From contig CAZHGG010000001.1 in assembly GCA_964531755.1 (NCBI GenBank), positions 4,446 to 42,173 on the forward strand: DNA of 37,728 nt, read 5' to 3'. The position numbers were made by a program, and so were the translations under genes. The stretch is from an uncultured Polyangiaceae bacterium. Its GTDB lineage: Bacteria; Myxococcota_A; Polyangia; Polyangiales; Polyangiaceae. The notes beneath the pieces were generated by a model. It ran no database searches and was not told where the DNA came from. It was given only the letters and a program-made list of their open reading frames with translations. This document shows positions 11,702-36,981 of the stretch, in pieces; the first letter of the stretch is position 1; each line of letters begins with the position of its first letter.

Positions 11702-11707
11702 CAGATT

Positions 11708-11712: not shown

Positions 11713-11751
11713 CCTCGCAGACCGATTCGAGCGCCCCGTTGCCCTGGGTCG

Positions 11752-15662: not shown

Positions 15663-15665
15663 TGT

Positions 15666-22900: not shown

Positions 22901-24094
22901 CGCCACGAGCAGATCGAACGCAATCACCAAGAAGTGCCCGCTCCCACACGCGGGGTCGAGCAGCTTGATGTCGCGCACCGACCGAGGCGCCCGCGCCACC
23001 GCGTCGTCGGGGATGGCCTGGGGTACGTAATATTTCCAGTGCTCCTCGAGCTCGCCCTCGAGCGGCATCAGCGCGTCGAGCGGCATCTCCCCCGCCTCGC
23101 GCTTCGCTCGCCACTCGGCACGACGCGCGTCGAGCAGGGGCAACACACGCTCGGCGTCCGCGGTCCACCCGTGCTTCTTGCACATGGCCAGCCACGTGAG
23201 GCCGAGGCTGTTCTGGAGGAGCCACTCCACCATGTACCGCTCGGTGAACATCTGCGTCTTCGAGGCGATTTCGTGCGGCTCGATCTTGCCGCCCCCGGCG
23301 ATCTTGTCGTCCAGCGCCTCGCGGTCCGGATCGTTCCAATACTGGTAGACCCAGCCGAGGGTCGTCTCGTCCTGCCAGGCGCTCTCGAGCCCGGGGTCGT
23401 CCAGGCGCTCGACCACCTCGCGCAGCGTGGCCGCGGGAATGCCGAAGAGCCGCGTGAGCCCCACGTCGCCGAAGAGGCCCGGCAGGTCCACTGCCAGCTC
23501 GTCGAACACGAGCTGGAGCAGCACCGCGTAACCCTCGGTCTCGTCGTTCGTTCCCCCGCCGCAGAGGGCCGGCGCGAACTCGCGAAGCTCGCGGTAGCCT
23601 TTGCTGTTCCAGCCGCCGGTGAGCACAGCGGGCTTGGAGAGCCCGAGGGCCTCGAGCTGGCGCAGGAGCACGAGCCGGTTCAGCAGGGTCGCCGCCGCTT
23701 CTTTCTCGGCCTGCGCGAGGAGACGCTCCTTGATGGCCAAGAGCTCGCTCGGGCGAACGGGGGCGCCGGCCTTGGCGGGCTTGGCCGACTTGCCGGCCTT
23801 GGCGGGCTTGACGGAGGCCGAGGAGGCCGAGGGGGTGGGAGCACCGAAGCCGGCCCGCGCCCGCGCGTCCAGAGTGGCCTCGATGCGCAGGCGTCGCTCT
23901 CGGTGCGCCTCGTCGAGGCCTGCCTTCTCGAGGGGAACCGAGAGCCGGTAGCGCCGATCGGCCTCGTCGTGAATGGCACGCAGAAGCCGCGCGCGGAGTC
24001 CCTTGTTCGCGCTGTCGTGCGACGAGGTGCCGCGGATAGTCTCGGCGAGGAGCTTCTTGGCTTCTGGGGTGAGGCGAGGGAGGTCGTTCACCAT
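19985..24094 (-). CDS. pglX: BREX adenine-specific DNA methyltransferase PglX.
   Basis: Motif I is LLDPACGSGHFLV and motif IV is VVGNPPYQG. Size is about 1369 aa. The ATG at 24094 (MVNDLPRLTPEAKK) overlaps the stop of the upstream small ORF by 1 nt (TGATG). The 77 further upstream codons in the track are Arg/Gly-rich and I reject them. Confidence 0.92.
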   Translation of the reverse strand: MVNDLPRLTPEAKKLLAETIRGTSSHDSANKGLRARLLRAIHDEADRRYRLSVPLEKAGLDEAHRERRLRIEATLDARARAGFGAPTPSASSASVKPAKAGKSAKPAKAGAPVRPSELLAIKERLLAQAEKEAAATLLNRLVLLRQLEALGLSKPAVLTGGWNSKGYRELREFAPALCGGGTNDETEGYAVLLQLVFDELAVDLPGLFGDVGLTRLFGIPAATLREVVERLDDPGLESAWQDETTLGWVYQYWNDPDREALDDKIAGGGKIEPHEIASKTQMFTERYMVEWLLQNSLGLTWLAMCKKHGWTADAERVLPLLDARRAEWRAKREAGEMPLDALMPLEGELEEHWKYYVPQAIPDDAVARAPRSVRDIKLLDPACGSGHFLVIAFDLLVAMYREEARHLGADLTDKAIAESILENNLHGLDIDPRAIQIAAAGLFLKAKSLAKGCRPKRVNLVAPVLQLGNLPADDPAVSALRRDLKREVGIPEELTQKLLTSLAGVDYLGSLLKVDAAVEGAIRDVEVELLRAHGQGDLFGGFATEAVKMTAEEAKATVLDKLEVFLAGHSRSEDLGLRLDGEQLAAGVRFVRLAKEGAYDVVVGNPPYQGLTKASGAFGYVATHYPRGKADLYAAFLERGLEFVREGGISALVTMRGWMFLGQFAELRKRLLETYDLRSIGDFDRGAFDEVPNEVLAVSVPVFRRAPHPGVPSVATQPTPLDDRSYDRARTGRKRAAVLAQVGRFEFDPRGFGVIEGEPVVYWWSREFLAEYRELPSFGSKYSGRAGMATQDNPRYVRMAWEVPVFAPKTAQRDGWVAFITGAKGREWIEPLTVVLRWHATGLEMKVRHEHAYRSISKYIPSESKYFEPGIAFCTTGATFSARSHRYPSVFSNVGSTVFAGAASHYVVCVLNSLRARRLLSDFNPSVHFELSDVARLPLFPLSKTETIFSTLDTSFSEHESHREPSVEFLSPGPSAWTYAQAWAQLAVDRPEGAPLPPYEPVYETARPEDHVSFAVGLALGRFPLEGPPSGVPLLFVSPEGPDSLDLPACAPLLEAWKGHGAHVGQGDSLRTYLRKSFFDFHKKLYENRPIYFPLSSSKRSFVALVSIHRWADDTLNVLLADHLMPAKRRLEGELDDLRTARAASNATGAAKSKAEKRFTEVQKLTEELGDFIAKVTELAEKGAPPSDDKTQPRERDARFAMDLDDGVMVNSAALWPLLEPQWKDPKKWWKELANAPAGGGAKKDYDWSHLAARYFPTRVRAKCHEDPSLAVAHGCFWELHPAKAYAWELRLKDEIRPDFTIDEPGSDEARARFLAEHAEEAQEALAKEMKRREKKNAKADAENEGDDAGAGPLFDGEASDDEGEGADA

Positions 24095-24357
24095 CAGCGA
24101 CGCTCGCTCGCGAGTGCGCCGCCCACGGCCTCGGTGCCGGGAACGGGGGGAATGAGCGAAGCCTGGAGCTTCGCGAGCTGCGCGGAACGCTCCACGGTGA
24201 AATACATCTCTCGACACGACGTACACGTCGGAACCGCGAAGGAGTCCGGGATCGGGAGAAACATCCCACGGCGGTATTCGGCCGCTCGGCCTGGCCCGGA
24301 GGTAAGACCCACCTCGGCTCCACACTCGGCGCAGCGAAACGGCTGAAAGTCACTCAT
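24094..24357 (-). CDS. Small (87 aa) four-Cys zinc-ribbon protein between brxC and pglX. It is not a canonical BREX gene.
   Basis: MSDFQPFRCAECGAEVG...AVPTCTSCREMYF gives a CxxC...CxxC arrangement. The stop overlaps the pglX ATG. An alternative GTG start at 24462 would overlap the brxC stop (GTGA), but it adds an Arg-rich, low-complexity 35 aa. Confidence 0.55.
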   Translation of the reverse strand: MSDFQPFRCAECGAEVGLTSGPGRAAEYRRGMFLPIPDSFAVPTCTSCREMYFTVERSAQLAKLQASLIPPVPGTEAVGGALASERR

Positions 24358-24458: not shown

Positions 24459-27400
24459 TCACGTCAGCCTCACGCGCCCGCCCCGGTCCAGTGTCGGGCC
24501 GATCCGCTCTTCCAGCTCCACCAGCACCGCCTTCAATTCGGCCCGGCTCGCGATCTCCCGGCCTCGCAGGCGGGTCTCGACCTTCACCACCGGCACCACC
24601 GGGCTCGGCGAGGCGCCCGCTGGCTTGGCCTTCCGGGCGAGCTCGTCGTCCAGGCGGTCGTTCGCCAGGTCCTCCGCCTGGTGAAGGCGGCTCGCGAAGC
24701 GGTCCCGCAGCTCGACCAGCGTGGGAGAGATGGCCTCGGCCGAAGTGTCCACCAGGCTCTCGGCGATCGGGCGGAGCACCCGATGGACCGCGTCCGCGTC
24801 GAGCTCGGCGAACCCCGCGCGTGTCTTCACGCGCGCTGTCACAGCGTCGGCGTCGAGGTTCTGCCGGTTGAGGAGCGCCCCTCGGACCTCGACGTAGCGC
24901 GCGCGGATCCGCGCAGACGCCGGCCCGAGCGGCGCGACGTCACGCCAGGGCCGCTCGGTCTCGAGGTGAGCGCACACGAGCTCGGCGTCGGTCTCGAGCC
25001 CCGCGAGCTCCTCCATCGCCCGGAGCTGCGAGAGCGCGTGGTCGCGGGTCTGCGCGGCCTCGTTCACCGTGTCGATCGCCTCCGGGGTGAGCTCGGCGCT
25101 GCACACCCCGAGCTGCTCGAAGCCATCCCGCAGGACGTCGAGGTTTCGCTTCACGGCGACCACGGTCTTCTGGACGAGCCGTGAGCGGTAGCTGTCTTCG
25201 AGGGCCCGATCGAGCTTCTGGAGCGCCTTCGGAAGCGCGGGGCGCCCTGGGAGCTGGTTCATGCGTCGCTCGAGATCGCGGAGGCGCTCGCGAGTGGGCA
25301 CGAAGTGAAGGAACACGGTGTCCGCGATGGCCTCGTCGTCCGGCTCGAGGTCGACCTGAAGCATGCTCTGGAAGAGTCGACGAATGGCGATCCTGTCCCG
25401 CCCGGTGACCTCGCCCTCCATGGCCGGGAACAGCTCCGCGCGACGGAAATCGCGATCTTTGGTGAAGAGATCGCGCACGCCCGGGTCTTGATGGGAGGTG
25501 ATGTCGTCGCCTTGCTCGGGACGAATGCGCACCTTCTTTCCGCGGAGGAGCCCCGCGCAGCACGCCTTCACGAGATCGGGCGCGTAGCCATAAGGCGGGC
25601 TCACGAACATGGCCACGAGAGCCTGCCCGGAGAGGCCGCCGTTCTTCTCGATCTCCTGGGCAATTCGCGTCGGGAAGAGGCCCGTGCAGGACGCGACGTA
25701 TTTGCCTGCGTCGAGCGCGAGGAGCCCAAGCCCCCCGTCCATGAACTTCGTGGATGGCCCCGTCAGCTCCCTCTCGAGGAGCTGCCCGAGCTCGGCGGGC
25801 GAGACCGCGATCTCGGAGAAGTGCGGGTAGAGATCGGGCAAGATGCGCGTGACCATGGTGCCGAGCGCGGTGCTGAACGCGCTCCCCGCGTCGCGCGGGC
25901 GGAGCTGCTGACCGCGAAAATACGCCGTGCCCTCCAGGAAGGACTCCGCCACAGCCGCACGCACGCGCGCCGAGAGCTCGTCGAAGCGAGCCTCTTCCTC
26001 GATCAAGAGGCGCTGCTTCTCTCGTGAGAGCGACGCACGGCGCGACGTGTACCGCTCGATGAGCTTCTCCGAGCGCGCGAGCTGCCTGGCGTGGTCCTCG
26101 ATCGCGCCCGACTCGCCGACCACCCACACGAGGCGATTGCGGTAGAGTTCCTGATCGCTCTTCGGGACCCACGCCGCGGCGGTGCGGTCCTCTTTCCTGG
26201 CGAGAAAGCGAAAGTCGACCGCGGCCGTCGAGTCCTCGCGGGCGTCCTGGAGCTTCACGTCGTGGGCCTGGCGCCCGTCGGAGAACCAGAGCGTCCACGG
26301 GAACGTACGGCCCTTCCACCGTGGCCGCTCCTGGCTCGAGCCCACGAGGTTCTTCAGGGCATCTTGGGTAATCTTGCTGATCTGCTCCTGGGTGACGCCG
26401 ACATCGTCGCGCTCTCGTTGCCACTCCTGCCCCGCCGAGCTCTGGATCTTGTACCCGTGCTTCTCGGAGTACGAGAGAAGGCTCTGCGAGCGGAGCTTCT
26501 CGAGCGCCTCGGTCACCGCTTGCACGCGGTTGCCTTCGCCGAGTCGTGAGTAGAGGCACGCCGCCACGAGCGCGGGCATCGTGGGCACTTGCTCCTGAAT
26601 GAGCTCGAGCAGGGCCACGGCTTTTCCCACGCGGATGGCGAACGCGTCGTCGCGAACCTTCGGATCGGCGAAGATGCGCGAGAGGGTGGTCTGAACGTCG
26701 GCGTCCAGCGCCGAGTGCTGGACCTCGAAGATCGCGTCGATCGTGACGAGCGCGCCCACCTCCCCGTTCGCCAGCTTCTGCTCTCGAAAGAGCTCGCCAA
26801 GGAGCTGAAGGAGGCCGCGGATCGCGTGGTCGTCGCCCTGCATGCGGTTCGATCGCGTGCGGAGGTTCGACGTGACTTGCATGAGGAGATCGATGTGCCC
26901 CGGGAGCATCGGATAGACCTCGACGAAGTCCTCCTCGGTGATGTCCTCGCACTGGTACCCGTAGAGCTTCAGATCGCCGCGGTGCTTCTGGAAAAGATCG
27001 CGGAGAGTGCCCTCGAGCTCGGGTTTCTTCTTGAGGAGACGCTTGTGGACGACGTCGCGGATGTTGGTCGTCCCGAGGTGAACGCGAAGGTGCGTGGGGA
27101 AGCGGTCCTTCAGCTTGCCTAGATTGTTGTTCTCGGCCTGGTCCTCGAGCTTCTGCTGACCGGTCGCGAAGAGCCACACCCGCCCCTTGAGGCGCTGCCC
27201 GAGCTCGGAGACGAACGACTGGAGCTTGAGCATCCGGCCCTCGTCTTGGTGAACGTATTGGCTCACCTCGTCGACGACGATGAAGAGGCTCCGGTTCTCC
27301 TCCCGGGTGTGAATCATGGCGTCGATGGCCTCGACCACCTCACGCACGCCGGTGCCTGCCCCGGTGCGCGAACCGGCGCGGCTGTCGATCCAGCTCATGG

Positions 27401-28109
27401 GATCGGGGTAGCGGTCGGGCTTCATCACGTGGAGCACGTGGGAGAAGTGGTCGTCCGCCTGCTCCTCTTCCTTGGCGACCGCCCAGTCCTTGCCGAGGGT
27501 CTTCTTGGCCGTGTGGACGAACGCCTCCCACTCGCCGTCGCGCTCGAGCTTCAGCTCGTAGTCGGCGACGAGGTTGCTCTTGGAGCAATACCCCAGGCGA
27601 CTCTGCACGAGGCGCAGCACGGCCGAGTGGATGTGCTCGTTGTCGCGGGCCACGCCGCCGATGTCGAACACGACCGCGATGGGATTCACGCGCTTCGCGA
27701 GCGCGTCCCAGGCGAGGACGAGCTCCTGGCGTCGCGGGGAGTCGTCACGCGTGAGCAGCGCCGACCAGAGAGGCGTCCCGTCGGGCAGCACCACACCGTC
27801 GAGCGAGAGCCCGAGCAGCTTGGCGAAGCTCGACTTTCCAGAGCCGAAGAAGCCCGAGATCCACGACGCCGGCAGCTCGGGGCCGCTCTTCTTGGTCAGC
27901 TCCTGCGAGATGCCTTCGAGCAGGTGAACGAACTGCTCGTGAATACCCGACTTCACGCGCCGGCCGCGCGGATCACCCTCGGGGTACCCGCCCGTGATGA
28001 TGTATTCGCTGACCTCCGCCTGGAGCTTGGCTGGGCTCTGCTCGTGGAAGTAGACGACCGGCGGGATGTCCCGGGTCACGTCGGCGACGAACAGGTCTCG
28101 AATCTTCAT
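24459..28109 (-). CDS. brxC: BREX P-loop ATPase BrxC/PglY (DUF499 family).
   Basis: A 1216-aa protein. It starts MKIRDLFVADVTRDIPPVVYFHEQSP, with Walker A at SGFFGSGKSSFAKLLGL and Walker B at LFIVVDEVSQY. It sits directly after brxB with a 28-nt gap. Confidence 0.9.
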   Translation of the reverse strand: MKIRDLFVADVTRDIPPVVYFHEQSPAKLQAEVSEYIITGGYPEGDPRGRRVKSGIHEQFVHLLEGISQELTKKSGPELPASWISGFFGSGKSSFAKLLGLSLDGVVLPDGTPLWSALLTRDDSPRRQELVLAWDALAKRVNPIAVVFDIGGVARDNEHIHSAVLRLVQSRLGYCSKSNLVADYELKLERDGEWEAFVHTAKKTLGKDWAVAKEEEQADDHFSHVLHVMKPDRYPDPMSWIDSRAGSRTGAGTGVREVVEAIDAMIHTREENRSLFIVVDEVSQYVHQDEGRMLKLQSFVSELGQRLKGRVWLFATGQQKLEDQAENNNLGKLKDRFPTHLRVHLGTTNIRDVVHKRLLKKKPELEGTLRDLFQKHRGDLKLYGYQCEDITEEDFVEVYPMLPGHIDLLMQVTSNLRTRSNRMQGDDHAIRGLLQLLGELFREQKLANGEVGALVTIDAIFEVQHSALDADVQTTLSRIFADPKVRDDAFAIRVGKAVALLELIQEQVPTMPALVAACLYSRLGEGNRVQAVTEALEKLRSQSLLSYSEKHGYKIQSSAGQEWQRERDDVGVTQEQISKITQDALKNLVGSSQERPRWKGRTFPWTLWFSDGRQAHDVKLQDAREDSTAAVDFRFLARKEDRTAAAWVPKSDQELYRNRLVWVVGESGAIEDHARQLARSEKLIERYTSRRASLSREKQRLLIEEEARFDELSARVRAAVAESFLEGTAYFRGQQLRPRDAGSAFSTALGTMVTRILPDLYPHFSEIAVSPAELGQLLERELTGPSTKFMDGGLGLLALDAGKYVASCTGLFPTRIAQEIEKNGGLSGQALVAMFVSPPYGYAPDLVKACCAGLLRGKKVRIRPEQGDDITSHQDPGVRDLFTKDRDFRRAELFPAMEGEVTGRDRIAIRRLFQSMLQVDLEPDDEAIADTVFLHFVPTRERLRDLERRMNQLPGRPALPKALQKLDRALEDSYRSRLVQKTVVAVKRNLDVLRDGFEQLGVCSAELTPEAIDTVNEAAQTRDHALSQLRAMEELAGLETDAELVCAHLETERPWRDVAPLGPASARIRARYVEVRGALLNRQNLDADAVTARVKTRAGFAELDADAVHRVLRPIAESLVDTSAEAISPTLVELRDRFASRLHQAEDLANDRLDDELARKAKPAGASPSPVVPVVKVETRLRGREIASRAELKAVLVELEERIGPTLDRGGRVRLT

Positions 28110-28137: not shown

Positions 28138-28803
28138 TCATGGATAGATGCGGGGGCGGTAGTCGCGATCGGCGGGCAGCTCGCACATGAACGAGAGCGC
28201 GCTCGTGGTCACGTCCGTTCGCTCTCCGGGGTAGAGGAGCACGACCGGGATGTTCCGCGTCTTGCCGTCGATGTGCTTGAGGAGCGCGGACGAGCGAAAG
28301 AAGGGGTAGAGCGCGCCGGCCCGCCCGAGGAGGACGAGCGTGCGGTCGGCCCTGTCGGGGTATTTCGCCGAGAAGTCCGCGACGAGCTTGGCGACGTCGC
28401 CGGCTATTCCGTCGGGCCCTTCGATGTGGGGAGCGATCTTGTCGCGCAGGTGGGCGAGGGCGCGCTCGGGGTCTTTCTCGTAGAGGCGCCGCTCGCGGCT
28501 CGTGAGGGCGTCGATGTTCGCCTGGCCCGTGGCTCGAATTCGGTCCAACAGGAGCTTCTGGAGGGAGATGGGGAGCACGCCCCAGCCTTCGGCGCGGAGC
28601 TTGTCGGTCAGGCGGCGTATGAGCTGACGGAGCTTGAACTCGTCTTTCGGGCGATACGGCAAGATCGCAAAGCGGTAGTTCCGCATCGTGCTGATCTGCG
28701 GCCCCTCGGGGGCGAGCAGATCGCGCTCGAGCGCGGCGACCGCTGCTTCGAGGGACTCGTGGAGGGCGCCAGGCTGGCCACGCGATGAAGAGCTCTCGGT
28801 CAT
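28138..28803 (-). CDS. brxB: BREX protein BrxB (DUF1788).
   Basis: The internal ATG at 28803 overlaps the brxA stop (ATGA). The 221-aa product carries ISTMRNYRFAILPYRPKDEFKLRQLIRRL and LVLLGRAGALYPFFRSSALLKHIDGKTRNIPVVLLYPGE, the DUF1788 pattern as I recall it. Confidence 0.82.
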   Translation of the reverse strand: MTESSSSRGQPGALHESLEAAVAALERDLLAPEGPQISTMRNYRFAILPYRPKDEFKLRQLIRRLTDKLRAEGWGVLPISLQKLLLDRIRATGQANIDALTSRERRLYEKDPERALAHLRDKIAPHIEGPDGIAGDVAKLVADFSAKYPDRADRTLVLLGRAGALYPFFRSSALLKHIDGKTRNIPVVLLYPGERTDVTTSALSFMCELPADRDYRPRIYP

Positions 28804-29612
28804 AGGGTGGCCTTCGCCCAGTCGGTGAGGCCTGCGGCCTCCCAGTCGAGCTCGGTGAGGTGGGCCATGCGGCGGAAGGTGATGCCTTCGAGCGAGCGGA
28901 GCCTCTGGTCGAGAAAGCCCTCGGTCAGCCCCACCGACGCAAGATAGGGATTTTCGGTGAGCGTGCCCGAGAACCGGAGGCCTCGCAGCAGGTGAAGCAA
29001 GTAGCCGAGCGCGAGATCGGGCACCTTGGGGACGAGGAGGAGCCGTGCCCCACGCCCCGCGGAGAGGAGCCCCGCCTCGGACGCGGCGGACATCAGCTTG
29101 CTTGCGAACTGCACACAGGTGGCCTCCGACCAGCGGCCGGGAAATTCGTTCTTCACCCACCGAAGCACGGTGTCGCGGTCGAGCGGACGCGAAGCGAGAT
29201 CGACGAGGCGCCGCTCGAGGAGCAGCTCCCCGGTGAATCGGCGATAGAGCGGGTCCGAGAGCTGCAAGTGCCAGTGGCAGATGGCCTGCCTCGTGGGCAT
29301 GTCCATCCCACGCCACCGGCGAAGGACCTCGAGCGCTTCGGGGAACGGATCGTAGCGTACGGCGAAGCTCTGGAGCAGAAACCGGACACGCTCGAGGCTC
29401 TTGCTGCCGAACCACCGCTCCTCGAACGCCACGAGGGCGCGGTCCGCCGAGGGGATCGAGGGATCGACGTGCTCCCAGTACCTCCGAGATTCCTCGATCC
29501 CGAGGGCGAGCCGCAGGATGCGCGTGTGGACGGCGGTAGCCTCGGACGGACGCTCGGCGTGTCCGGCGCCTTCGCGGTCCTTGTTCAATGCAGCGGCCCC
29601 CACCCTCTTCAA
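28800..29612 (-). CDS. brxA: BREX protein BrxA-like (DUF1819-like).
   Basis: The call rests mainly on position, immediately upstream of brxB with a 4-nt overlap, and on an all-helical composition. At 270 aa it is longer than a typical BrxA. The start is ambiguous: TTG at 29612 or GTG at 29603. Confidence 0.65.
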   Translation of the reverse strand: MKRVGAAALNKDREGAGHAERPSEATAVHTRILRLALGIEESRRYWEHVDPSIPSADRALVAFEERWFGSKSLERVRFLLQSFAVRYDPFPEALEVLRRWRGMDMPTRQAICHWHLQLSDPLYRRFTGELLLERRLVDLASRPLDRDTVLRWVKNEFPGRWSEATCVQFASKLMSAASEAGLLSAGRGARLLLVPKVPDLALGYLLHLLRGLRFSGTLTENPYLASVGLTEGFLDQRLRSLEGITFRRMAHLTELDWEAAGLTDWAKATL

Positions 29613-29616
29613 GCGA

Positions 29617-30207
29617 TCACTCCTCCAGCTTGAAGTAGGGCAAGGGGTAGTGTTCAGCGAGTGGCACCAGCGCGGCGGCCAAATTCTTCACCTGGACGTC
29701 GAGGGCTTCGGGGCGCGCGCCGAGACCGCGAGTGAGCTGCCGCCCGTTGGGCACCGTGGTGAAGGCCGGGGAGTTTGCCTGCCCCGCGAGGGCCGCGACG
29801 AGCTTCTTGCGCACAGCAGGCGAGAAATCGGCGTCAAGACGGACCGGAAGCGAGAGGGCCTTCTCCGGTGGACGGCCCGAGCGCTTGTGGGCCGCGAGGC
29901 GATCGGCGAGCTGCTCGTCTGCTTCGAAGCCCAGAAAGTACAAAGAGCGCATCTTGTCGGGATCGGCCATCCTGCCGCGCGCCTTCGCGTCGGTACGCCG
30001 AGCGGCCTCACGGACTGCCTCGAGTGAAGCCCACGCGTGCGTCTGGGGCAGGAGCCGCGCCAAGAAATCTCCGCCTCCCGCCTCGTCGATGAGGTCGGTA
30101 TCCCACCAGCCGAGGCGGCGCGGCGTGCACCGGCCCTCACCAGCCCACGCGACCGTGAGCTGGAGCGCGAGGATCGCGTCGAGGGTCTCGTCGGAAATGG
30201 GCGTCAT
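29617..30207 (-). CDS. brxE: First gene of the BREX operon; putative BrxE (BREX type-6-specific protein).
   Basis: A 196-aa ORF with ATG at 30207, ending 4 nt before brxA. The assignment is positional, since type 6 is defined by an extra gene upstream of brxA. I cannot verify a BrxE sequence signature from memory. Confidence 0.5.
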   Translation of the reverse strand: MTPISDETLDAILALQLTVAWAGEGRCTPRRLGWWDTDLIDEAGGGDFLARLLPQTHAWASLEAVREAARRTDAKARGRMADPDKMRSLYFLGFEADEQLADRLAAHKRSGRPPEKALSLPVRLDADFSPAVRKKLVAALAGQANSPAFTTVPNGRQLTRGLGARPEALDVQVKNLAAALVPLAEHYPLPYFKLEE

Positions 30208-30236
30208 CGGGCGAGGAGCCTACGCCCTCCTTGGCG

Positions 30237-30836
30237 ATGGGAACAAGGCTCGAGTCGGTTCGCACCGGATCCCCGCAGCCGGTGTGTGCGCTGTGGTACC
30301 TTCGCCCCGTGGGGACGCGCGACGAGTGGAACGAGCTGGTCGGGAGCTTGGGCGAGACCGATCGCACGCGAAGCCCACGCTTCCCGGAATTTTACGTGCT
30401 CGCCGTTCGCGATGGGGCGAAGTTCCTGGCGTCGTTTCGGGCGAGCCTGGGCGACGAGCGGATCCACGATCTCATCCACGACGTCCTCGCCGACGCCGAC
30501 ACCATCCTCCGGGCCGATACGCCCCGCGCCCTCTTCTATACGGCGCTCAAGCGGCGCGCCATCTCCTGGAAGCGCCGCGGGGACGCGCCGGTCGTCGAGA
30601 CTCCGCCCGTCGAGGTCGCGACCGAGCACGCACACGCCGTGGAGGCGCGGCGCGCGTTCGTGCTCGACGCTCAGGCTGCGTTCGACGCCCTCCCCGATCG
30701 CGAGCGCCTGATCGTGGCGGCGGCCGCGCTCGGCGAAGACCGCGAGACCATCGCTCGCGACCTCCGGACCACGCGCGCGAACGTGGATCAGATCGTGAGC
30801 CGCGCGCGAAAGCGCTTCCGGGAGGGTGGCCCGTGA
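30237..30836 (+). CDS. ECF-like sigma-70 family RNA polymerase sigma factor.
   Basis: Region 2-like: FPEFYVLAVRDGAKFLASFRASLGDERIHDLIHDVL. Region 4.2-like: LPDRERLIVAAAALGEDRETIARDLRTTRANVDQIVSRARKRFRE. The start is uncertain among TTG 30231, ATG 30237, and GTG 30282 or 30309. It is divergent from brxE. Confidence 0.75.
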   Translation: MGTRLESVRTGSPQPVCALWYLRPVGTRDEWNELVGSLGETDRTRSPRFPEFYVLAVRDGAKFLASFRASLGDERIHDLIHDVLADADTILRADTPRALFYTALKRRAISWKRRGDAPVVETPPVEVATEHAHAVEARRAFVLDAQAAFDALPDRERLIVAAAALGEDRETIARDLRTTRANVDQIVSRARKRFREGGP

Positions 30837-31603
30837 AGCTCCCCAGCCGAGACATGCGACTTGCCGGCGGGCTCGTCTGCCCCGCGCGCGCGATCGACCG
30901 CGCGGCGTGGCTCGAGCATGTGGTCAAGCACCCCCTCGGCGTGAACGCCATCGCGCGCAACTCGGGCCGCGATCCGTGGAACCTCGAAGGGTGGGACCGC
31001 CTGAGCCCCCCCGTCGTCACCCAGGCCCAGCGCGACGAAGTGCTCCGTGGCATCGCGAGTCTGCGTGAGGAGAAGCTTCGGTGCGAGGTCCCCGAGCTTC
31101 GGGGCAAAAAGTCCGGCTCGGAACCCGATCGCCTCGCGTGTCGAAAGTGCGTCGTGCCGATCGTCTCGCGCTGCGAGAAGCTCCTCGACGCCGACGATGG
31201 TGTGGGAAGCCGGTATGCTTCGGTGACCGAAGAGCTGCTCGGCGCGCTCGAGGAGGGGCAGGGCGTGGTGATCGCCCCGGCGAGCTTCCACGAAGCGATC
31301 CAACGGCTCTGGCGAGCCCCCGAGCGCCTCGCGGGCTTGGTCGTCCTCACGATTGGGCTCGACCGCGCGTGCGCCGCCGTGCCCATCGCGAGGATCAGTC
31401 GAGCGGACGGGGTGCGCGCCGAGCTCTACTTCGAGGAGCCGAACCGACTCCGTTGGCGGACGGCGTACCGCAACGCGGCCCTGACGAGGACCGGTCCTCA
31501 GATCGTGAGCTTCGTCGGGGAGGTGGCGCGACCGTCTCCCGGACTCGCGTTGTCAGATCTCTGCGTGGTGCCGCGTCGTTGGTGGGAGGCACATGGCATC
31601 TGA
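30833..31603 (+). CDS. Hypothetical cytoplasmic protein; an anti-sigma or adaptor role is possible but unsupported.
   Basis: The GTG at 30833 overlaps the sigma-gene TGA (GTGA). GC3 is high. No transmembrane segment is evident. A Cys cluster, RCEVPEL...ACRKCVVPIVSRC, is present. This is the 3' part of the 623-aa track ORF, whose upstream part I reject. Confidence 0.55.
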   Translation: MKLPSRDMRLAGGLVCPARAIDRAAWLEHVVKHPLGVNAIARNSGRDPWNLEGWDRLSPPVVTQAQRDEVLRGIASLREEKLRCEVPELRGKKSGSEPDRLACRKCVVPIVSRCEKLLDADDGVGSRYASVTEELLGALEEGQGVVIAPASFHEAIQRLWRAPERLAGLVVLTIGLDRACAAVPIARISRADGVRAELYFEEPNRLRWRTAYRNAALTRTGPQIVSFVGEVARPSPGLALSDLCVVPRRWWEAHGI

Positions 31604-32726
31604 TCTTTACGGCATCGCCGTACGTGACACGAACGCGGCCCTTCGCGGGGTCGAGCGCGACCTCTCCCGGGCCGTCGAAAACGCGGAATGGCTGCAAATT
31701 CCGCTCGCCCGCGTCGGCGATGCCTTGCGCCTCGGGCTCGAGCTCTCGCGCCCTTTGCGCGCGTGGCTCGGAGGCCTCGCGCCGGAGGAGCTCAAGGGCG
31801 CGCTCGCGAGCATGACCGAAGAAGCCGCCTCGTGGAGCCTGCCCACGCGGCCCGTTGGCGAGGACGAAGATCCGATCTTGACCACCGTCCTCCGGCGCCG
31901 CGACGAGGCCGAGAGCCTTCGCGCGGCCGTGCGTCGGGCCGCCCAACCGAAGGGGCATGTCGCCCAGAGCTGGTCCGAATACGTCGCCCTCTCTGCGGCG
32001 CTGTCGACGGCGGACGACGGGATTCGTCGCGTGGTTACGCGCGCCCGGGTCACGGAGCTTCTCGGCGCGCGCGCCGCGATGCGGCCGACCTGGGCCGACG
32101 CGTTCGACGAAGAGCCCGACGAGGAGCCTTCCACCGACGAGGGCGACCTGCCCCTCGGCGTGGCCGCCACCGTTCGCCTCGCCGACGAGGACATCGCGCG
32201 CTACGTGACGCGAGGAGCGCTCTCGCGCCTGGTCGAAGGCATGGCAGCGGCCAATGGGCAGTTCGCCGAGGAGCTCGCCGAGTGCATCGACGGCCTCCTC
32301 GAGGCGCGCGAGGAGGTCGCCTGGGTCGCTCGAAGGTGGCGAAAGGCTGCGCCGATTCGCTGCGAGAGGGACCCTCTCGTCCTCCGCTCCGTGCCCGCCG
32401 TGCGGTTGGCCGCGGCCTCGGCCCCGGTGGTCTCGTCCGAGGCGACGCTCGTTCATCTCTGGACGCTCTCCCCACTCGACGCGGAAGCATGTGTCGAGCT
32501 GACGCCGCGCGAGGTGGTGCTCGTCGTGTTTCCCGGGGAAGACCCCCTCCTCCGCTTGGAGCTCGCGGATCGCGTTTGTACGGCGGCGGACGAAGACGGC
32601 GTGTGGCGAGTGAGGCTCGCCCTGCCGTCCGGACCGGTGACGGTTCGCGTGGTCGGCGCCGACGGCCGCGTGTTCGCGTCGGAGCTTGGCTTCGCAAACG
32701 CCGATCCGTCCGATGAAGCGGAGTGA
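31593..32726 (+). CDS. Hypothetical protein (377 aa) with an acidic central linker and a beta-rich C-terminus.
   Basis: ATG at 31593 overlaps the upstream gene by 11 nt. The frame has consistently high GC3. I recognise no motif. Confidence 0.6.
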   Translation: MASDLYGIAVRDTNAALRGVERDLSRAVENAEWLQIPLARVGDALRLGLELSRPLRAWLGGLAPEELKGALASMTEEAASWSLPTRPVGEDEDPILTTVLRRRDEAESLRAAVRRAAQPKGHVAQSWSEYVALSAALSTADDGIRRVVTRARVTELLGARAAMRPTWADAFDEEPDEEPSTDEGDLPLGVAATVRLADEDIARYVTRGALSRLVEGMAAANGQFAEELAECIDGLLEAREEVAWVARRWRKAAPIRCERDPLVLRSVPAVRLAAASAPVVSSEATLVHLWTLSPLDAEACVELTPREVVLVVFPGEDPLLRLELADRVCTAADEDGVWRVRLALPSGPVTVRVVGADGRVFASELGFANADPSDEAE

Positions 32727-34461
32727 CTTCGAGGCTCGACTCCGCGAGCTGAAGCGCCTCCCGCGGGGCTCCGCGAGAGCGAAGATGTTCGTGAGCGATC
32801 TCGAGCGAGCCGCGCCCGACATGGCCCACGCGCTCCGCGAGGAGCTGAGGCGCGTGGCTGCGGAGCATGGCCTCGGCGGGGGCGCGATCTTCGCGAAGCC
32901 GCTGGGTGTCGGCGAGAGTTGGCTCTTGCTGTTCGAGCCCCCCAAGCAGGGCCATGTCTTTCGCCTTCGGGCCTCCTTCGAGCCCGGCGGGAAAGAGGGA
33001 CGCCTCGAGGCCGAGATCCGTCGCGCCTATCGGGGCCTCGTCGCCAGCGCGGCGAAGGTCGGCCGGCACCTCGACCACCGGGTGCCCCCCGTCGTCACGA
33101 TGGACGCCCCGACGCTGGCTCACTTCGAGATCGAGGGGAGCTCGCTGGGGCTCAGCGTGGCCATCGCGGCGCTGTCGGCGGCCACGTTGCGCGCCCCGGA
33201 CTCGCGGGTAGCCGCTTCGGCTCAGGTACGGGATGACGGCAGGTTGGCGCCCGTCGAGCACCTCGCGCCGAAGCTCGAGGCGCTTCGTCAGGCCCACCCC
33301 GAAGTCGAGCGAGTGCTCGTGGCCGCGGGGCAAGACACGCGCGACTACCACGGGCCGCTCGAGATCGTGCCCGCGCACCATCTGGTCGACGCGATGTCTC
33401 CGTGTGGGCTCACGTTCGACTCGCTCCCCGAGGCACGACTCGACAGCTTCCGTGAACGAATCGAGCGTTTCGCCAGCGAGAATGGCCACCCGCACGGTGT
33501 CGATGACTGGAAGCGCCTCTCGCTCGAGGCGTGGGAGACCGCGAAGGTGCTCGAGCCCCACGAGCCCGCGCGGGCGGGCGCGGCGCTGGCTTTCGCTGCC
33601 CGCTTCGCCGTCCACGCGGGCGAGCCAGAGGGGGCTACGACGCTCCTCCGCGAGGCCCCGACTCTGGACGTCGACGCCTATCCCGAGCTCCACGCCTGCC
33701 GCCTCATCGCGCGCGCCACGAGCGCGATCGACCTGGACGATCCCGCCCACGCGTGGGCGCTGGCCGCCGAGGCCGTCGCCGCATGCGAAGCGCTCGGAGG
33801 CAGCGACCGCCGCGAGCTGCTCGGTCAGGCCTATGGCACGTTGGGGCGAGCGATCCTCCACGCCGGATCTCCCGCGGAAGCGGAAGGCCCTCTGCGTAAG
33901 GGCATGGACCACCATGCGAGGGTGTGCCCGGCGGAGGCCCCCCGCTCGGGCTGCTACCTCGCCACCTGCCTGCGCAGGATGGGACGGCTCGAGGATGCAG
34001 CGCAAATCGTGGATGCGGCGCTCGAAGCCTTGAAGCCCGAACGCTGGGATCTCCACGTGACGACGAAGAACTACCTGCATCTGGAACGCGCGCGGATCTT
34101 CTCGGAGTCCAACGACTCAGCGGCCGCCATTGGCGCCTTCGAGCTCGTCTGCCGGGCACAGAGTCGAGACTCGAGCTATCCGCGCCTCGGCGCGCTTCGA
34201 GGTTTAGCGAGCGCGTATCGCCTGGCGGGCGAGCTTGCGCGGGCCGACGAAGCGCTCCGCGCCTGTCTGGCCGTCGGGCGCGCCGCCGGGACCCCTCGCA
34301 CCATCGCGCGAGTGGCTGCGATTCCTGCGGGCGAGCTGCTCGTCTCGGACGCGCGCACGTCGGTCGACCGCGCCGATCTCGAGCAGGTGTGGCGGGTAGC
34401 GTTCGGCCCGGACTTGTCGCCCGACGGAATCCGCGAACGACTGAGGACCTGGATCTACTGA
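32713..34461 (+). CDS. Lon-like (peptidase S16) serine protease domain fused to C-terminal TPR-like repeats.
   Basis: ATG at 32713 overlaps the upstream gene by 14 nt. FEIEGSSLGLSVAIAALSAATLRAPDSRVAASAQVRDDGRLAPVEHLAPKLEALRQAHPEVERVLVAAGQ aligns by eye to E. coli Lon DGPSAGIAMCTALVSCLTG...[37 protein letters not shown]. The Ser (S144, 33142-33144) and Lys (K187, 33271-33273) fall at the dyad positions. The C-terminal half (about 33500-34440) is Ala/Leu-rich and TPR-like. Confidence 0.72.
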   Translation: MKRSDFEARLRELKRLPRGSARAKMFVSDLERAAPDMAHALREELRRVAAEHGLGGGAIFAKPLGVGESWLLLFEPPKQGHVFRLRASFEPGGKEGRLEAEIRRAYRGLVASAAKVGRHLDHRVPPVVTMDAPTLAHFEIEGSSLGLSVAIAALSAATLRAPDSRVAASAQVRDDGRLAPVEHLAPKLEALRQAHPEVERVLVAAGQDTRDYHGPLEIVPAHHLVDAMSPCGLTFDSLPEARLDSFRERIERFASENGHPHGVDDWKRLSLEAWETAKVLEPHEPARAGAALAFAARFAVHAGEPEGATTLLREAPTLDVDAYPELHACRLIARATSAIDLDDPAHAWALAAEAVAACEALGGSDRRELLGQAYGTLGRAILHAGSPAEAEGPLRKGMDHHARVCPAEAPRSGCYLATCLRRMGRLEDAAQIVDAALEALKPERWDLHVTTKNYLHLERARIFSESNDSAAAIGAFELVCRAQSRDSSYPRLGALRGLASAYRLAGELARADEALRACLAVGRAAGTPRTIARVAAIPAGELLVSDARTSVDRADLEQVWRVAFGPDLSPDGIRERLRTWIY

Positions 34462-34518
34462 TCCGGCTGGAATCGGAGCCAGGACGTCAGAAACCCTCGG
34501 CTCGCACGTCGTGTGGGA

Positions 34519-36981
34519 ATGCTCACCCTCCCCCGCGCTCCCCGCGCCCTGGTCCCCGCGTCTCCTCCCCACCACCCGCGCTCTGCGGCGAGCTCGGCGA
34601 TGGCCATGGCTCCCACCGCGCCTGCCTGGCAGCCTCACCTGTCGCTCAAGCTCCGCAACGCGACGACGGGCGTCAACCCGCGCGATCACCAGCTCGCCGC
34701 GTGGGACCGAATGACTGCCCACTACCTCCAAGAGGGCAAGCAGGCTGGAATCGTCGTCGTGCCCACCGGCGGCGGGAAGACGGTCCTCGCCGCCCACTGG
34801 CTGCTCGAGCACCACATTCGCAACGGCGGCCGCGTGCTCTGGCTCGCGCATCGCCGCAGCTTGCTCCGCCAGGCCATGAGCACGTTCCACAACCTTGGAA
34901 ACGTGGCCTATCCGAAGCCGGCGCTGCACTTGGCGACGGTCTCCTCGACCGACGCGAAGTGGACCACCATCAGCACCGACCACGACGTGGTGTTCTCGTC
35001 GATGCAGACTGGCGTGCTCGACACGAACCTGGGCTTCGTCGAGGCGTTCGTGAAGGAGGCCCCGAGCGGTACGTTCGTGGTCGTCGACGAGGCCCACCAC
35101 GCCCCCGCGCCGAGCTACGCCCGCCTTCTGCGCTCGTTGAAGTCCTGGGACTGCAAGCTCCTCGGTCTGACGGCGACGCCCGTGCGCGCGAACGACGAGG
35201 ACGCGAAGCGACTCGCGGCCCTCTTCGACATCGAGAGGCCGCACAATCGGCCGCTCTACCAGGTCACACGTCGCCAGCTCACCGATCAGGGCATCCTCGC
35301 CCACCCGGCCTTCACGACGGTGAAGACCGAAGTGAACCTCGAGAAGGACTTCACCCCCGAGGACTACCGGCACCTCGAGCGCTACGGCGAGATGGGCCCG
35401 AACGTGCTCCACCGGCTCGCGAAGAACGCGCACCGCAACAAGCTCATCGTGGACGAGTACAAGAAGGGAAAGGCCAAATACGGCCCCACCATCATGTTCG
35501 CCGCCGACACGCTCCACGCGCAGACGCTCGCCCACGAGCTGCAGAAGGCGGGCATCGACGCGGACTATGTCGACTACAGCCGCAAGGACGCGCAGGTGGT
35601 CATGGAGAGCTACCGAACCCGCAAGAAGCCCGACGTCCTCGTGAACGTCGAGATGCTCACCGAGGGCTTCGACGCGCCGCACACGCGCACCGTGTTCATC
35701 GCGCGTCCCACGCGCTCGCCTGGCCTCGTGTCGCAGATGGTCGGCAGGGCGCTGCGCGGAAAGAGGTCCGGCGGAAACGAGATTGCTCACCTCGTGACGT
35801 TCCGTGACACGTGGGAGCAGTTCGACGTGCTCGACACCGAGTACGTGCTCCGCGAGGCCGAGGACTCCGAGAAGCTTCCCGAAGTCACCACGCCCAGCCA
35901 GCTCGTGGTCATTCCTCCGGAGCTCGTGACGGAGGCGTACCGCATCCTCCAGAGCAACGTCCGCGGACACCTCGTCGGCGTGTTCCAGTGCCTCCCGCAC
36001 AGCTGGTACGCCTGGATCGAGGTCCTCGAAGACGACCTCCAACCCCGGCACGTCATGGTGTTCGACAACCAGATCGCAGGGTTCGAGGCCCTCCTCGCCG
36101 CCTTCCCCACGAGCGAGGGGATCCCGGAGGAGATCACCGAGGACTTCGCGAGGGCGCTGGTGCAGCGCTTCTTCGTGGACGTCCCCGATCCGCTTCCCCG
36201 CTGGGCCGACGTGGCGGCCCTCCTCCACGCGAGGCGGAGCGACTTCGGCATCACGCACTACACGTTCGAGGAGAAGAGCGCCTTCGACCCGAACGCGCTC
36301 GCTCGGCAGATCCTGGAGCGGAAGCTAGCGAGACTCGAGGAGCACGCGTTCCTCCAGGGCGTTTGGGACGCGAACCAGGCCTGCCGAAGCGTGTACCGCG
36401 ACGATCTTCGGTCTTTCCTCGAGGACGTGTCGGCCGAGATGCTCGAGCTCACCGCGCCGCCCCCCGCGAAGCTGGCGCCGGAGATCGAGAGAATCGTCCC
36501 GCAGTCTGCGCCGCGCGCGTGGGGCAAGGGAGAACAAGGCTATTCGCTGGTCGGCCTCCGTCGCAGCGTGCTCAGCATCAAGAAGCACTTTCCGGGCGGG
36601 CCGCCTCCCGTGTCCGAGATGCGTTGGTCGGAGCGGCCCACCACGCGACTCTGGGGCTTCTGTCGCTACTCGGACAGGAGCATCACGCTCAACTGCGTCC
36701 TCGACTCGCCGGATATCCCGTACTTCGTTTTGGAGTACCTCATGTTCCACGAGATGCTCCACGCCGACATGCCAAGCGCTGGCCACAACCGCGACTACCG
36801 CGAGCGAGAGCGTGGGTACACACCCTCGGCGGAGGCCCTGGAGGACGCGGAAAGACGCGGGATCCGGCCGGGGGCGAACGCGGGGCCGCTGTTCTGGTAC
36901 GTCACGGCGGACCGGTTTCTCGGGACGTTCGACCGGTATTACCTGCACAAGGCGCCGGGGACGACGATGGAAGTGGGGTGA
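34519..36981 (+). CDS. SF2 helicase (type III restriction res-subunit-like, paralogous to 9053..11701) fused to a C-terminal DUF45/YgjP-like HExxH zinc metallopeptidase domain.
   Basis: Helicase motifs: VVVPTGGGKT, VVVDEAHHAP, GLTATP, QMVGRALRG. The C-terminus RLWGFCRYSDRSITLNCVLDSPDIPYFVLEYLMFHEMLHADMPSAGHNRDY matches the DUF45 pattern (rWGsC...i.lN..L...p...leYVvvHELcH....H), with HEMLH at 36748-36762. The start is ambiguous: ATG 34519, or ATG 34600/34606, which would remove a Pro/Ala-rich leader. Confidence 0.85.
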   Translation: MLTLPRAPRALVPASPPHHPRSAASSAMAMAPTAPAWQPHLSLKLRNATTGVNPRDHQLAAWDRMTAHYLQEGKQAGIVVVPTGGGKTVLAAHWLLEHHIRNGGRVLWLAHRRSLLRQAMSTFHNLGNVAYPKPALHLATVSSTDAKWTTISTDHDVVFSSMQTGVLDTNLGFVEAFVKEAPSGTFVVVDEAHHAPAPSYARLLRSLKSWDCKLLGLTATPVRANDEDAKRLAALFDIERPHNRPLYQVTRRQLTDQGILAHPAFTTVKTEVNLEKDFTPEDYRHLERYGEMGPNVLHRLAKNAHRNKLIVDEYKKGKAKYGPTIMFAADTLHAQTLAHELQKAGIDADYVDYSRKDAQVVMESYRTRKKPDVLVNVEMLTEGFDAPHTRTVFIARPTRSPGLVSQMVGRALRGKRSGGNEIAHLVTFRDTWEQFDVLDTEYVLREAEDSEKLPEVTTPSQLVVIPPELVTEAYRILQSNVRGHLVGVFQCLPHSWYAWIEVLEDDLQPRHVMVFDNQIAGFEALLAAFPTSEGIPEEITEDFARALVQRFFVDVPDPLPRWADVAALLHARRSDFGITHYTFEEKSAFDPNALARQILERKLARLEEHAFLQGVWDANQACRSVYRDDLRSFLEDVSAEMLELTAPPPAKLAPEIERIVPQSAPRAWGKGEQGYSLVGLRRSVLSIKKHFPGGPPPVSEMRWSERPTTRLWGFCRYSDRSITLNCVLDSPDIPYFVLEYLMFHEMLHADMPSAGHNRDYRERERGYTPSAEALEDAERRGIRPGANAGPLFWYVTADRFLGTFDRYYLHKAPGTTMEVG

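Follow-up and report, generated by a model that had tools for sequence, protein, structure and literature searches.

What does a sigma-factor cassette do when it lies back to back with a phage-defence system, and which genes does it control? The question was raised by a 37,728-nt stretch of DNA (hereafter the window) from an uncultured Polyangiaceae bacterium. The window is a high-GC (~67%) defence island that carries a bacteriophage exclusion (BREX) system on the minus strand and, divergent from its brxE gene, four plus-strand open reading frames (ORFs) between about 30.2 and 34.5 kb. These encode a sigma factor of the extracytoplasmic function (ECF) type (P1), two proteins without recognisable domains (P2 and P3) and a Lon-like protease with tetratricopeptide repeats (TPR; P4). 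We read the region as a self-contained sigma switch, gated by a protease and serving an exchangeable effector gene, a neighbour of BREX and not a part of it, and give this reading a probability of roughly 0.55. The direct results behind it are the conservation of the cassette, the ECF-type sigma, the Lon-type catalytic dyad combined with TPR, and the promoter motifs with their geometry. Coordinates of all features are collected in Table 1.

The four genes are joined by overlaps, as the first-pass annotation of this locus had described. The stop of P1 and the start of P2 share GTGA (4 nt, 30833-30836), P2 and P3 overlap by 11 nt (31593-31603) and P3 and P4 by 14 nt (32713-32726). The same 4/11/14-nt pattern was found in the homologous loci L001, L002, L003 and L008, and a 4/11/4-nt pattern in L005. 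The 4-nt P1/P2 overlap is common to all loci compared, and the P4 start at ATG 32713 is the one that yields the 14-nt overlap kept in homologues. As the same overlaps return across loci, they are not due to chance, and the genes abut or overlap in the gene calls of further cassette loci too. Among 5.8 billion proteins we recovered 39 homologue clusters for P2, 17 for P3 and 14 for P4. On every contig that was long enough the gene order was identical, with a sigma of ~175-195 aa followed by proteins of ~255, ~375 and ~580 aa. A name look-up of the clusters returned only 'hypothetical' or 'TPR repeat protein', PADLOC (2023) offers no model for any of P1-P4, and a non-exhaustive literature search found no account of this cassette. 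A convincing transmembrane segment was present in none of the four proteins.

The cassette was found in about 12 other metagenomic contexts with varying neighbours. Only one locus (L010, a distant copy in a deltaproteobacterial metagenome-assembled genome) was recovered from 185,579 representative genomes; the scan of a metagenome contig collection yielded three short contigs, and the plasmid and viral contig collections scanned yielded none. According to the gene tables, BREX is absent from all 12 other contexts and adjoins the cassette only in this window. Divergent type I restriction-modification (R-M) genes lie beside it in six contexts (L003/4, L005/6, L008, L014, L018 and the P0004 contig), and L019 is a seventh, decayed R-M context with a methylase fragment only. 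The neighbours in L001 are McrBC, an SbcCD-like pair and type I R-M. An operon with kinase-like, vWA, PP2C and HATPase genes stands beside the cassette in L016/17 and on the P0013 contig, STAND-like ATPases in L015 and L016, and transposase and phage tail genes were also seen. Counting BREX here and the decayed L019, the cassette is back to back with methylation-based defence in 8 of about 13 contexts. The first-pass annotation had considered that the module might be independent of BREX and had suggested a look at synteny in other genomes. The four-gene order, conserved as a unit beside many different neighbours in defence islands or mobile regions, fits this.

Some loci deviate in small ways. 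In L019 (8934-9001), P2 has shrunk to a 20-codon remnant, VKVLLSDRCVGVPHRWESHES, in which the first and last codons are fused; the remnant has no CGT block (see below) and the adjoining R-M methylase is fragmentary, and we regard this locus as a decaying copy of the cassette. A 73-74-codon gene lies divergently just upstream of the sigma gene in L001 (7301-7525, minus strand) and in the P0004 contig (7279-7500, minus strand). It has no counterpart in the window, where brxE takes that side. The distant sigma relative P0104 is located on a 1.1-kb contig, and its context was uninformative.

The last gene of the cassette had been taken for a Lon-like Ser-Lys protease with TPR repeats, and profile searches upheld this. 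In P4, ~55 residues precede the protease domain (~56-235), which is followed by TPR (~263-582). A profile of the protease domain only matched 46 Lon entries in the PDB (E 5.8e-6 to 1e-3), and in the alignment with A. fulgidus Lon (1z0c/1z0e) its catalytic Ser-Lys pair is matched by S144 and K187, which are invariant in 15 sequences. Taken alone, P4 gave weak Lon matches (TIGR02902, E 2.7e-4; 1z0c, E 0.06). The TPR matches were to TPR_MalT (E 6.5e-6), TPR_12 and the structure 4y6c (E 3.7e-8), and no SAVED match was found in the C-terminal half. Because no AAA+ or Walker motif was matched in profile searches and the TPR come after the protease domain, we consider P4 to be an ATPase-less Lon-like protease and not a canonical Lon. 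The idea that the TPR form a hypervariable sensor was rejected, as this region is about as conserved as the protease domain (mean pairwise identity 0.55 vs 0.58).

Regarding the genes under control of the cassette, the evidence came from the spacers that follow P4. The fifth gene varies by locus: it encodes a helicase-peptidase in the window (P5), L003 and L008, a DUF2130 protein in L002 and a 571-aa protein without assignment in L005. P5 matched ResIII (1e-21), Helicase_C (1e-9) and, at its C-terminus, YgjP-like (4e-4) in Pfam. With the products of the fifth gene in L003/L004 and L008/L009 it shares 70% identity, P3 and P4 being less conserved. Its start, GTG 34513 in the mechanical ORF, was corrected to ATG 34519 (820 aa) by homologues and promoter geometry, and the spacer between the P4 stop (34461) and this ATG is 57 nt long. 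When the spacers between P4 and the fifth gene were compared, the motif GTCAGAA(A/C/T)-N-(G)CGTCGT was found in the window, L003, L008, L002 and L005, and at all five sites the second block stood exactly 6 nt before the ATG. The motif also precedes four further, independently called gene starts, one each in L001 and L018 and two in L016 (Table 1). The genes behind it include non-homologous ones and lie on both sides and both strands of the cassette, and the flanking spacers cannot be aligned.

In 233 kb we counted 9 copies of the pattern GTCAGA-N15-16-CGT-N9-ATG, compared to 0.035 expected and a maximum of 1 in 200 Markov simulations. A position weight matrix (PWM) built from the five discovery sites only gave 32 matches of at least 15 bits (6.9 expected). 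A PWM scan of both strands of the window returned just two sites of at least 14 bits, one before P5 and the other within P2. All effector genes have their ATG 6-7 nt past the second block, and no sigma-70 -10 element was found. As the second block ends 6 nt before the ATG, the motif can be read as a -35/-10 promoter giving a leaderless mRNA. ECF promoters with a CGTC-type -10 are known, such as ECF41 with TGTCACA-N16-CGTC, and the blocks of our motif are similar. We infer that P1 recognises GTCAGAA-N14/15-CGTCGT, and the site at 34486-34512 is the predicted P1-dependent leaderless promoter of P5. The spacer 34462-34518 had been named beforehand as a place to search for a cognate promoter, and the helicase-peptidase as a possible output; the conserved motif directly before the P5 ATG agrees with both.

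Further motif-like sequences were noted outside these sites. Weaker sites (16-20 bits, with a 5' untranslated region) lie upstream of divergent type I hsdM genes in L003 (7300), L008 (6358), L011 (904), L005 (7476) and L018 (7639), all on the minus strand, and several of these genes are HTH_3-HsdM fusions. They are possible targets, and the sigma may also induce R-M in some genomes. L003 has a second perfect motif at 15417-15450 (L004 13562), GTCAGAATCC...GCGTCGT, scoring 24.1 bits, 6 nt before an uncalled 62-codon ORF located 3.7 kb downstream of the cassette, which may be a small extra member of the regulon. A low-scoring sequence (~15.6 bits), GTCTGCATCGACGAGAA...ACGTCGT, occurs antisense in the helicase-peptidase gene at 35009 in the window, 12268 in L003 and 12285 in L008 (all minus strand) and is probably a by-product of coding conservation.

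A non-immune role of the cassette is still live, since its predicted targets (the helicase-metallopeptidase, Metallophos with SMC-like ATPase, DUF2130) resemble repair enzymes and since PADLOC is blind to the cassette and to most effectors. The region would then be a stress or DNA-damage ECF module, in which an endogenous signal (protein or DNA damage) induces repair enzymes: the repair of DNA-protein crosslinks would fall to the helicase with its SprT/YgjP-like metallopeptidase, and the processing of DNA ends to the SbcCD-like pairs. A TPR region that is not hypervariable would suit such a module as well. We nevertheless consider it unlikely. All contexts are defence islands or mobile regions, with BREX, Druantia-like, McrBC, type I R-M, transposase or phage tail genes, and the cassette is very rare and patchy, with one locus in the representative genomes and a few dozen metagenome clusters. 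Moreover, close relatives have exchanged their effectors, kinase/vWA/PP2C genes and STAND-like ATPases among them, as is typical of conflict systems rather than core repair.

P1 was harder to assign. Its ORF is open from 30159, and the homologues place the conserved start at GTG 30309 and not at 30208-30237, so P1 begins 101 nt from the brxE ATG (30207), farther than the 30 nt or less that had been supposed. The first-pass annotation had also reported signatures of sigma-70 regions 2 and 4. Region 4 was recovered below the curated cut-off: P1 alone matched Sigma70_r4_2 with E 5.7e-5 (23.1 bits, Pfam cut-off 25.7) and TIGR02937 with E 2e-6, likewise below cut-off, residues 77-198 of the 201-aa ORF aligning to positions 27-163 of 165 in the model. 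Region 2 was not seen in P1 alone, as Sigma70_r2 matched neither P1 nor the six cassette sigmas searched singly, and it became visible only with a profile of 54 relatives.

An exhaustive search gave 131 representative P1 relatives, nearly all of 165-200 aa and matching over the full length. All six cassette sigmas matched Sigma70_r4_2 (best E 7e-9), as did 43 of the 54 wider relatives, and 11 of the 54 passed Sigma70_r2. The 54-member profile aligned near full length (positions 5-177) to at least ten ECF sigma structures, among them CnrH (4cxf, E 3e-12), 5uxx, 9m9d and SigE, SigH, SigJ and SigL of M. tuberculosis; a chain labelled DdvS was not among its PDB matches. This profile superseded an hhalign comparison of the six cassette sigmas with E. 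coli RpoE (an approximate query), in which region 4 only was recovered with poor statistics. The size of P1 fits the ECF class (~170-200 aa, no region 1.1 or 3). We class P1 as a divergent sigma of the ECF type whose region 2 has support at the family level only. It is improbable that P1 is instead a sigma4/LuxR-like helix-turn-helix activator or repressor and that the GTCAGAA...CGTCGT sites are its operators. P1 alone matches region 4 and helix-turn-helix models only, some relatives also match GerE and HTH_28, and the hhalign comparison points the same way. However, the family profile spans regions 2 and 4 of the ECF structures, with a fifth of the relatives (11 of 54) passing the region 2 model, and blocks spaced by 14-15 nt and located 6-7 nt before a leaderless ATG, with no TAnnnT -10 nearby, have the geometry of a -35, a -10 and a +1.

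The second site of the window, within the 3' end of P2, codes for a conserved peptide, SDLCVVPRRWW, and its conservation alone therefore proves nothing. In P2 of 11 loci we found 36 invariant amino-acid columns with a synonymous choice, of which five are also invariant in their codon: two Cys (the common TGC), a His whose CAT supplies the P3 start, S241 and R248. S241 is always TCA, a codon that accounts for 7 of 124 Ser codons elsewhere in P2, and R248 is always CGT (27 of 305 Arg codons elsewhere). These two codons are the -35 (GTCAGA) and -10 (CGT) blocks of the site, and both are kept also in the distant L010 and L012. The invariance of rare codons in the motif blocks points to selection at the nucleotide level, and the site is most simply explained as a putative sigma-dependent promoter for P3-P4. 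The motifs could also have been kept by shared ancestry and coding constraint alone, the cassette having no dedicated target and P5 being co-transcribed or independent. The loci are indeed homologous, the pattern was refined after inspection and the internal site is coding. We give this explanation little credence, because rare-codon invariance is confined to the two blocks while other invariant residues vary synonymously, and because the motif, in spacers that do not align, keeps a fixed distance from the independently called ATGs of non-homologous genes on either side and either strand.

Upstream of the sigma gene, nine loci have an extended -10-like element, TGnTAnnnT, at a distance of 6-8 nt from the start codon, and L001 has the variant TGTAGTCT; otherwise no sequence upstream of the sigma start can be aligned between loci. 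This suggests that the cassette transcript is constitutive, leaderless and driven by the housekeeping sigma. As the sigma-type motif is absent upstream of its start, the sigma gene has no visible auto-regulation. A generic scan for sigma-70 promoters and terminators in 29900-34700 found no -35/-10 pair and nothing useful.

That the cassette replaces BrxR as a dedicated regulator of the adjacent BREX, its sigma turning on brxE-brxA-brxB-brxC and the rest, is highly improbable: the divergent arrangement with a spacer of just 101 nt, at least six other contexts with a divergent methylation-based neighbour (type I R-M) and the 16-20-bit sites before hsdM in five loci would speak for it, but the PWM scan found no motif upstream of brxE (30208-30308), elsewhere in BREX or at 11702-11751, the only window sites being those before P5 and within P2, none of the 12 other contexts has BREX, the cassette has its own downstream target and no PADLOC BREX model matches P1-P4. 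BREX as an output of the switch, also suggested earlier, is thus not supported.

The two middle proteins had been described as lacking a recognisable domain or transmembrane segment, and indeed neither had a match in Pfam, NCBIfam, PADLOC or PDB sequence profiles. P2 is the most conserved member of the cassette (63-72% identity among closer loci), and none of its 39 homologue clusters contains a Pfam domain. Its invariant residues are C84, C103-x2-C106, C114, H29 and H33. The four cysteines likely form a zinc site, of which the pattern, C-x18-CxxC-x7-C, is unlike the Hx3Cx2C motif of zinc-binding anti-sigma (ZAS) proteins. The AlphaFold2 model (predicted local distance difference test, pLDDT, 91.8) had no significant match in the PDB or BFVD (best E 0.015, TM ~0.2). 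Weak matches to papain-like/deubiquitinase folds at these values were judged to be noise, and the most hydrophobic window of P2 is a beta-hairpin in the model.

The model of P3 (pLDDT 84.1) consists of a helical domain (1-170), an acidic disordered linker (177-192), a second helical domain (198-252), a flexible linker and a beta-sandwich (285-369), and had generic beta-sandwich matches only in the PDB. The flexible linker carries the conserved motif (V/I)PxxRLAAA(T/S), in which the xAA core is kept in all 16 homologues (LAA in 14, YAA or FAA in two) and the flanks are variable. By analogy with the systems discussed below, RLAAA is a candidate cleavage site of the Lon-TPR protease or a candidate Ala-Ala C-degron. 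Anti-sigma profiles (zf-HC2, RskA and others) did not match P3 even at E<=10, nor P2 in the Pfam search. A possible resemblance of P3 198-252 to a classical anti-sigma domain ('AYxDGELS...') had no profile support and was dropped. Its domain-linker architecture and the RLAAA motif make P3 our preferred candidate for the cleavable anti-sigma. P2, Cys-rich and translationally coupled to the sigma, could equally well be the sigma-binding partner.

A cytoplasmic switch of sigma, partner and protease, as proposed in the first-pass annotation, fits all these findings; what is inferred is that proteolysis gates it, that infection triggers it and which protein serves as the anti-sigma. Transcription would start from the extended -10 element (30294-30302) and give a leaderless mRNA for P1 and the coupled P2, with read-through into P3 and P4. 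In the resting state, P2 and/or P3 would hold P1 inactive, P3 as the cleavable anti-sigma and P2 perhaps as a zinc-binding co-factor made 1:1 with the sigma. A signal derived from infection or stress would reach the TPR domain of P4, and the Ser144-Lys187 dyad would cut the partner, probably P3 at the RLAAA linker. By analogy with CalpT and RseA, the cut would leave an Ala-Ala C-terminus and ClpXP-type cellular proteases would complete the degradation. The freed P1 would then direct RNA polymerase to GTCAGAA-N14/15-CGTCGT promoters. The internal site in P2 would boost P3-P4 as a feedback loop, and the site before ATG 34519 would switch on the leaderless mRNA of P5, the putative executing effector. 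In other genomes, the same motif would wire the cassette to SbcCD-like nuclease/ATPase pairs, DUF2130, unassigned proteins and the kinase/vWA/PP2C operon, and possibly to type I R-M operons too.

Several observations weigh against this switch. P1 alone fails the curated cut-offs of sigma models, and region 2 is visible at the level of the family profile only. The TPR are not more variable than the protease domain, unlike a fast-evolving phage sensor. P2 and P3 show no similarity to anti-sigma factors, CalpT, Csx30 or Csx31, as far as these, and for CalpT its deposited fragment, are represented in the PDB, and the choice of the sigma-holding partner is for this reason a guess. No recognisable motif was found near neighbour genes in the most divergent loci, L010, L014 and L015, whose sigmas may read a different sequence, and the gene that immediately follows P4 in L016 and L018 has no motif. 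Part of the motif definition was made with the sites already in view, and the loci share a common ancestry. Finally, PADLOC assigns the effectors to no known defence protein, and many resemble DNA-repair enzymes, so that the anti-phage role is deduced from context.

By function, the nearest known systems are CalpL/CalpT/CalpS (CalpLTS), Craspase with Csx29/Csx30/Csx31/RpoE, and DdvS-DdvA, and the cassette is a member of none of them. CalpL cuts CalpT in an unstructured segment and exposes an LAA-ending degron, which cellular proteases require for freeing the sigma; the VAA of RseA acts likewise as a degron, as discussed in the same study (bioRxiv 10.1101/2024.05.08.593097). CalpL resembles P4 in being a soluble, ATPase-less Lon-type Ser-Lys protease with the dyad near the N-terminus (S152/K193 or S154/K195 in CalpL, bioRxiv 10.1101/2024.05.08.593097; S144/K187 in P4) and a C-terminal sensor domain. 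As its output CalpLTS has an ECF-like sigma that a soluble partner restrains, the layout proposed here for P1, and the LAA degron in an unstructured region of CalpT would have its counterpart in the RLAAA of the flexible P3 linker. On the other hand, the sensor of CalpL is a SAVED domain binding cyclic tetra-adenylate (cA4), whereas P4 has TPR. CalpLTS is associated with type III CRISPR (clustered regularly interspaced short palindromic repeats), whereas neither the window annotation nor the gene tables of the 12 other contexts contain cas genes. CalpLTS has one partner protein, whereas there are two here, neither of them like any PDB entry. The P4 protease profile matched 46 classical Lon entries and no CalpL chain at E<=10, assuming that CalpL is in the PDB copy used, and the only link to CalpL is a match of P4 to the PADLOC CRISPR-Lon model with E 0.058. 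The cognate promoter and target genes can be predicted for the cassette, and we did not meet a counterpart of this for CalpS in the literature.

The accessory set of Craspase is like the cassette in its composition, with a TPR-containing protease, two accessory proteins of unknown fold, one of which is cleaved, and an ECF sigma gated by cleavage. However, Csx29 belongs to the caspase-like CHAT proteases, has a Cys-His dyad and depends for its activation on the RNA-guided Cas7-11, and P4 is of the Lon Ser-Lys type; Craspase is a type III-E CRISPR system, and the cassette has no CRISPR context. No sequence or fold match to Csx30 or Csx31, if represented in the PDB, was obtained from P2 or P3.

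In M. xanthus, the ECF sigma/anti-sigma pair DdvS-DdvA controls a defence island with CRISPR and a cyclic-oligonucleotide-based anti-phage signalling system (CBASS) (PMC11506125). Like P1, DdvS is an ECF sigma, and it induces neighbouring defence genes, as proposed for P1. In DdvA, TPR are combined with a domain resembling a protease, and the sigma is bound by a Cys/His zinc site (PMC11506125); comparable parts are present or predicted in the cassette; the host groups are likely similar (high-GC, delta/Myxococcota-like). In contrast, DdvA spans the membrane, has its TPR-CHAT part in the periplasm and needs RseP-type intramembrane proteolysis, whereas the cassette proteins are all predicted to be cytoplasmic and their protease is of the Lon type and on a separate polypeptide.

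A more general likeness exists to the sigmaE-RseA-DegS/RseP-ClpXP pathway, in which sigma and partner are co-transcribed and translationally coupled, the promoter has two blocks with a CGT-type -10, and the sigma is released by a site-specific cleavage that exposes an Ala-Ala C-degron, as we propose for P3. The cassette differs in having a dedicated protease encoded in the operon and no membrane anchoring. Its sigma gene is not visibly auto-regulated, with a sigma-type internal promoter predicted for P3-P4 only, and its predicted targets, which vary from genome to genome, are neighbouring genes with leaderless mRNAs.

The examples of immune signalling by a protease-released sigma known so far all lie downstream either of CRISPR (CalpLTS, Craspase) or of an anti-sigma in the membrane (DdvA/DdvS). 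If the switch is real, the same protease-sigma logic exists outside CRISPR in a sensor that is portable and stands by itself, and its output code can be read, as a short promoter and a leaderless ATG mark the effectors. Such a code makes testable the induced arm of the defence island, the effector roles of the helicase-metallopeptidase and SbcCD-like pairs, and the triggering of TPR-Lon. The models of P2 and P3 would represent two confident novel folds, the compact and orthogonal sigma/promoter pair may be of use in synthetic biology, and in annotation the helicase-peptidase P5 would go with the sigma cassette instead of being lumped with BREX. More tentatively, the cassette may represent a class of CRISPR-independent bacterial immune switches, in which a constitutively made cytoplasmic sensor, the Lon-TPR protease with two novel-fold partners, frees a private sigma that fires promoter-tagged leaderless effectors. 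A defence gene that is toxic or costly would then become infection-inducible wherever it stands behind GTCAGAA-N14-CGTCGT-N6-ATG. The trigger could be failed or inhibited methylation-based defence (e.g. by anti-restriction proteins), as hinted by the repeated back-to-back position with type I R-M and, here, BREX, and the switch would then be a second-line 'guard' of R-M and BREX. We hold this wider proposal to be possible, though doubtful in its full form.

Table 1. Positions and basis of the features discussed (window coordinates unless another locus is named).
Feature	Position	Strand	Basis or remark
P1, divergent ECF-type sigma, 175 aa, start GTG	30309..30836	+	start from homologues; family profile
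P2, 256-aa soluble protein, fold without relatives	30833..31603	+	39 homologue clusters; conserved residues; AlphaFold2 model
P3, 377-aa soluble multi-domain protein, candidate cleavable anti-sigma/substrate	31593..32726	+	17 homologue clusters; AlphaFold2 model
P4, 582-aa Lon-like (S16) protease with TPR, start ATG 32713	32713..34461	+	profiles, invariant dyad
P5, 820-aa ResIII/DEAD-type helicase with C-terminal YgjP-like zinc metallopeptidase	34519..36981	+	Pfam; HEMLH at residue 744
Extended -10-like element TGGTACCTT, 6 nt before sigma start codon	30294..30302	+	TGnTAnnnT conserved
Internal promoter-like site GTCAGAT-N15-CGTCGT in P2 3' end, ending 13 nt before P3 ATG	31552..31579	+	PWM 22.8 bits; codon constraint
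RLAAA codons (P3 residues 271-275) in motif (V/I)PxxRLAAA(T/S)	32403..32417	+	conservation; low-pLDDT linker
P4 S144 codon	33142-33144	+	
P4 K187 codon	33271-33273	+	
ECF-type promoter motif GTCAGAA-N14-CGTCGT, 6 nt before ATG 34519	34486..34512	+	23.4 bits, top match in the window
Metallophos + SMC-like ATPase operon upstream of cassette	L001 ATG 3358		motif-preceded
Metallophos + SMC-like ATPase operon downstream of cassette	L018 ATG 13129		motif-preceded
First gene of divergent kinase/vWA/PP2C operon	L016 ATG 8127		motif-preceded
HATPase gene	L016 ATG 3360		motif-preceded
BrxE	29617-30207	-	
BrxA	28800-29612	-	
BrxB	28138-28800	-	
BrxC	24459-28109	-	
PglX	19985-24325	-	
PglZ	17033-19891	-	
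BrxD	within 15666-17441	-	
BrxHI	11752-14889	-	

The BREX system of the window is complete and type-6-like, and the identity of brxE was confirmed. The mechanical ORF of BrxD (15666-17441) overlaps PglZ by ~400 nt and matches the BrxD model from residue 137 on, and the true start is for these reasons probably downstream of 17441. In the same minus-strand segment (14886-17441), a 258-aa ORF between BrxD and BrxHI has no Pfam or PADLOC match. Downstream of BrxHI lie, on the minus strand, a gene for an 882-aa ResIII helicase fused to an Amidoligase_2 domain (9053-11701) and, overlapping it, a gene for a 368-aa AIG2/GGACT gamma-glutamyl-cyclotransferase-like protein (7956-9062). The helicase cores of the amidoligase protein and of P5 share 30% identity (E 4e-30), so that the island contains two paralogous helicases, with a metallopeptidase and an amidoligase as their respective C-terminal enzymes. 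The helicase-amidoligase and cyclotransferase-like pair could be a separate conflict system based on peptide ligation. On the plus strand, the left end of the window encodes a Druantia DruE-like SNF2 helicase (64-3858, E 4e-142), a 404-aa ORF without assignment and, at 4993-7866, a protein of 957 aa whose Ser/Thr kinase domain is PD-T4-6/PglW-like. With the DruE-like and kinase genes added to the list, at least four to five systems are stacked in this island.

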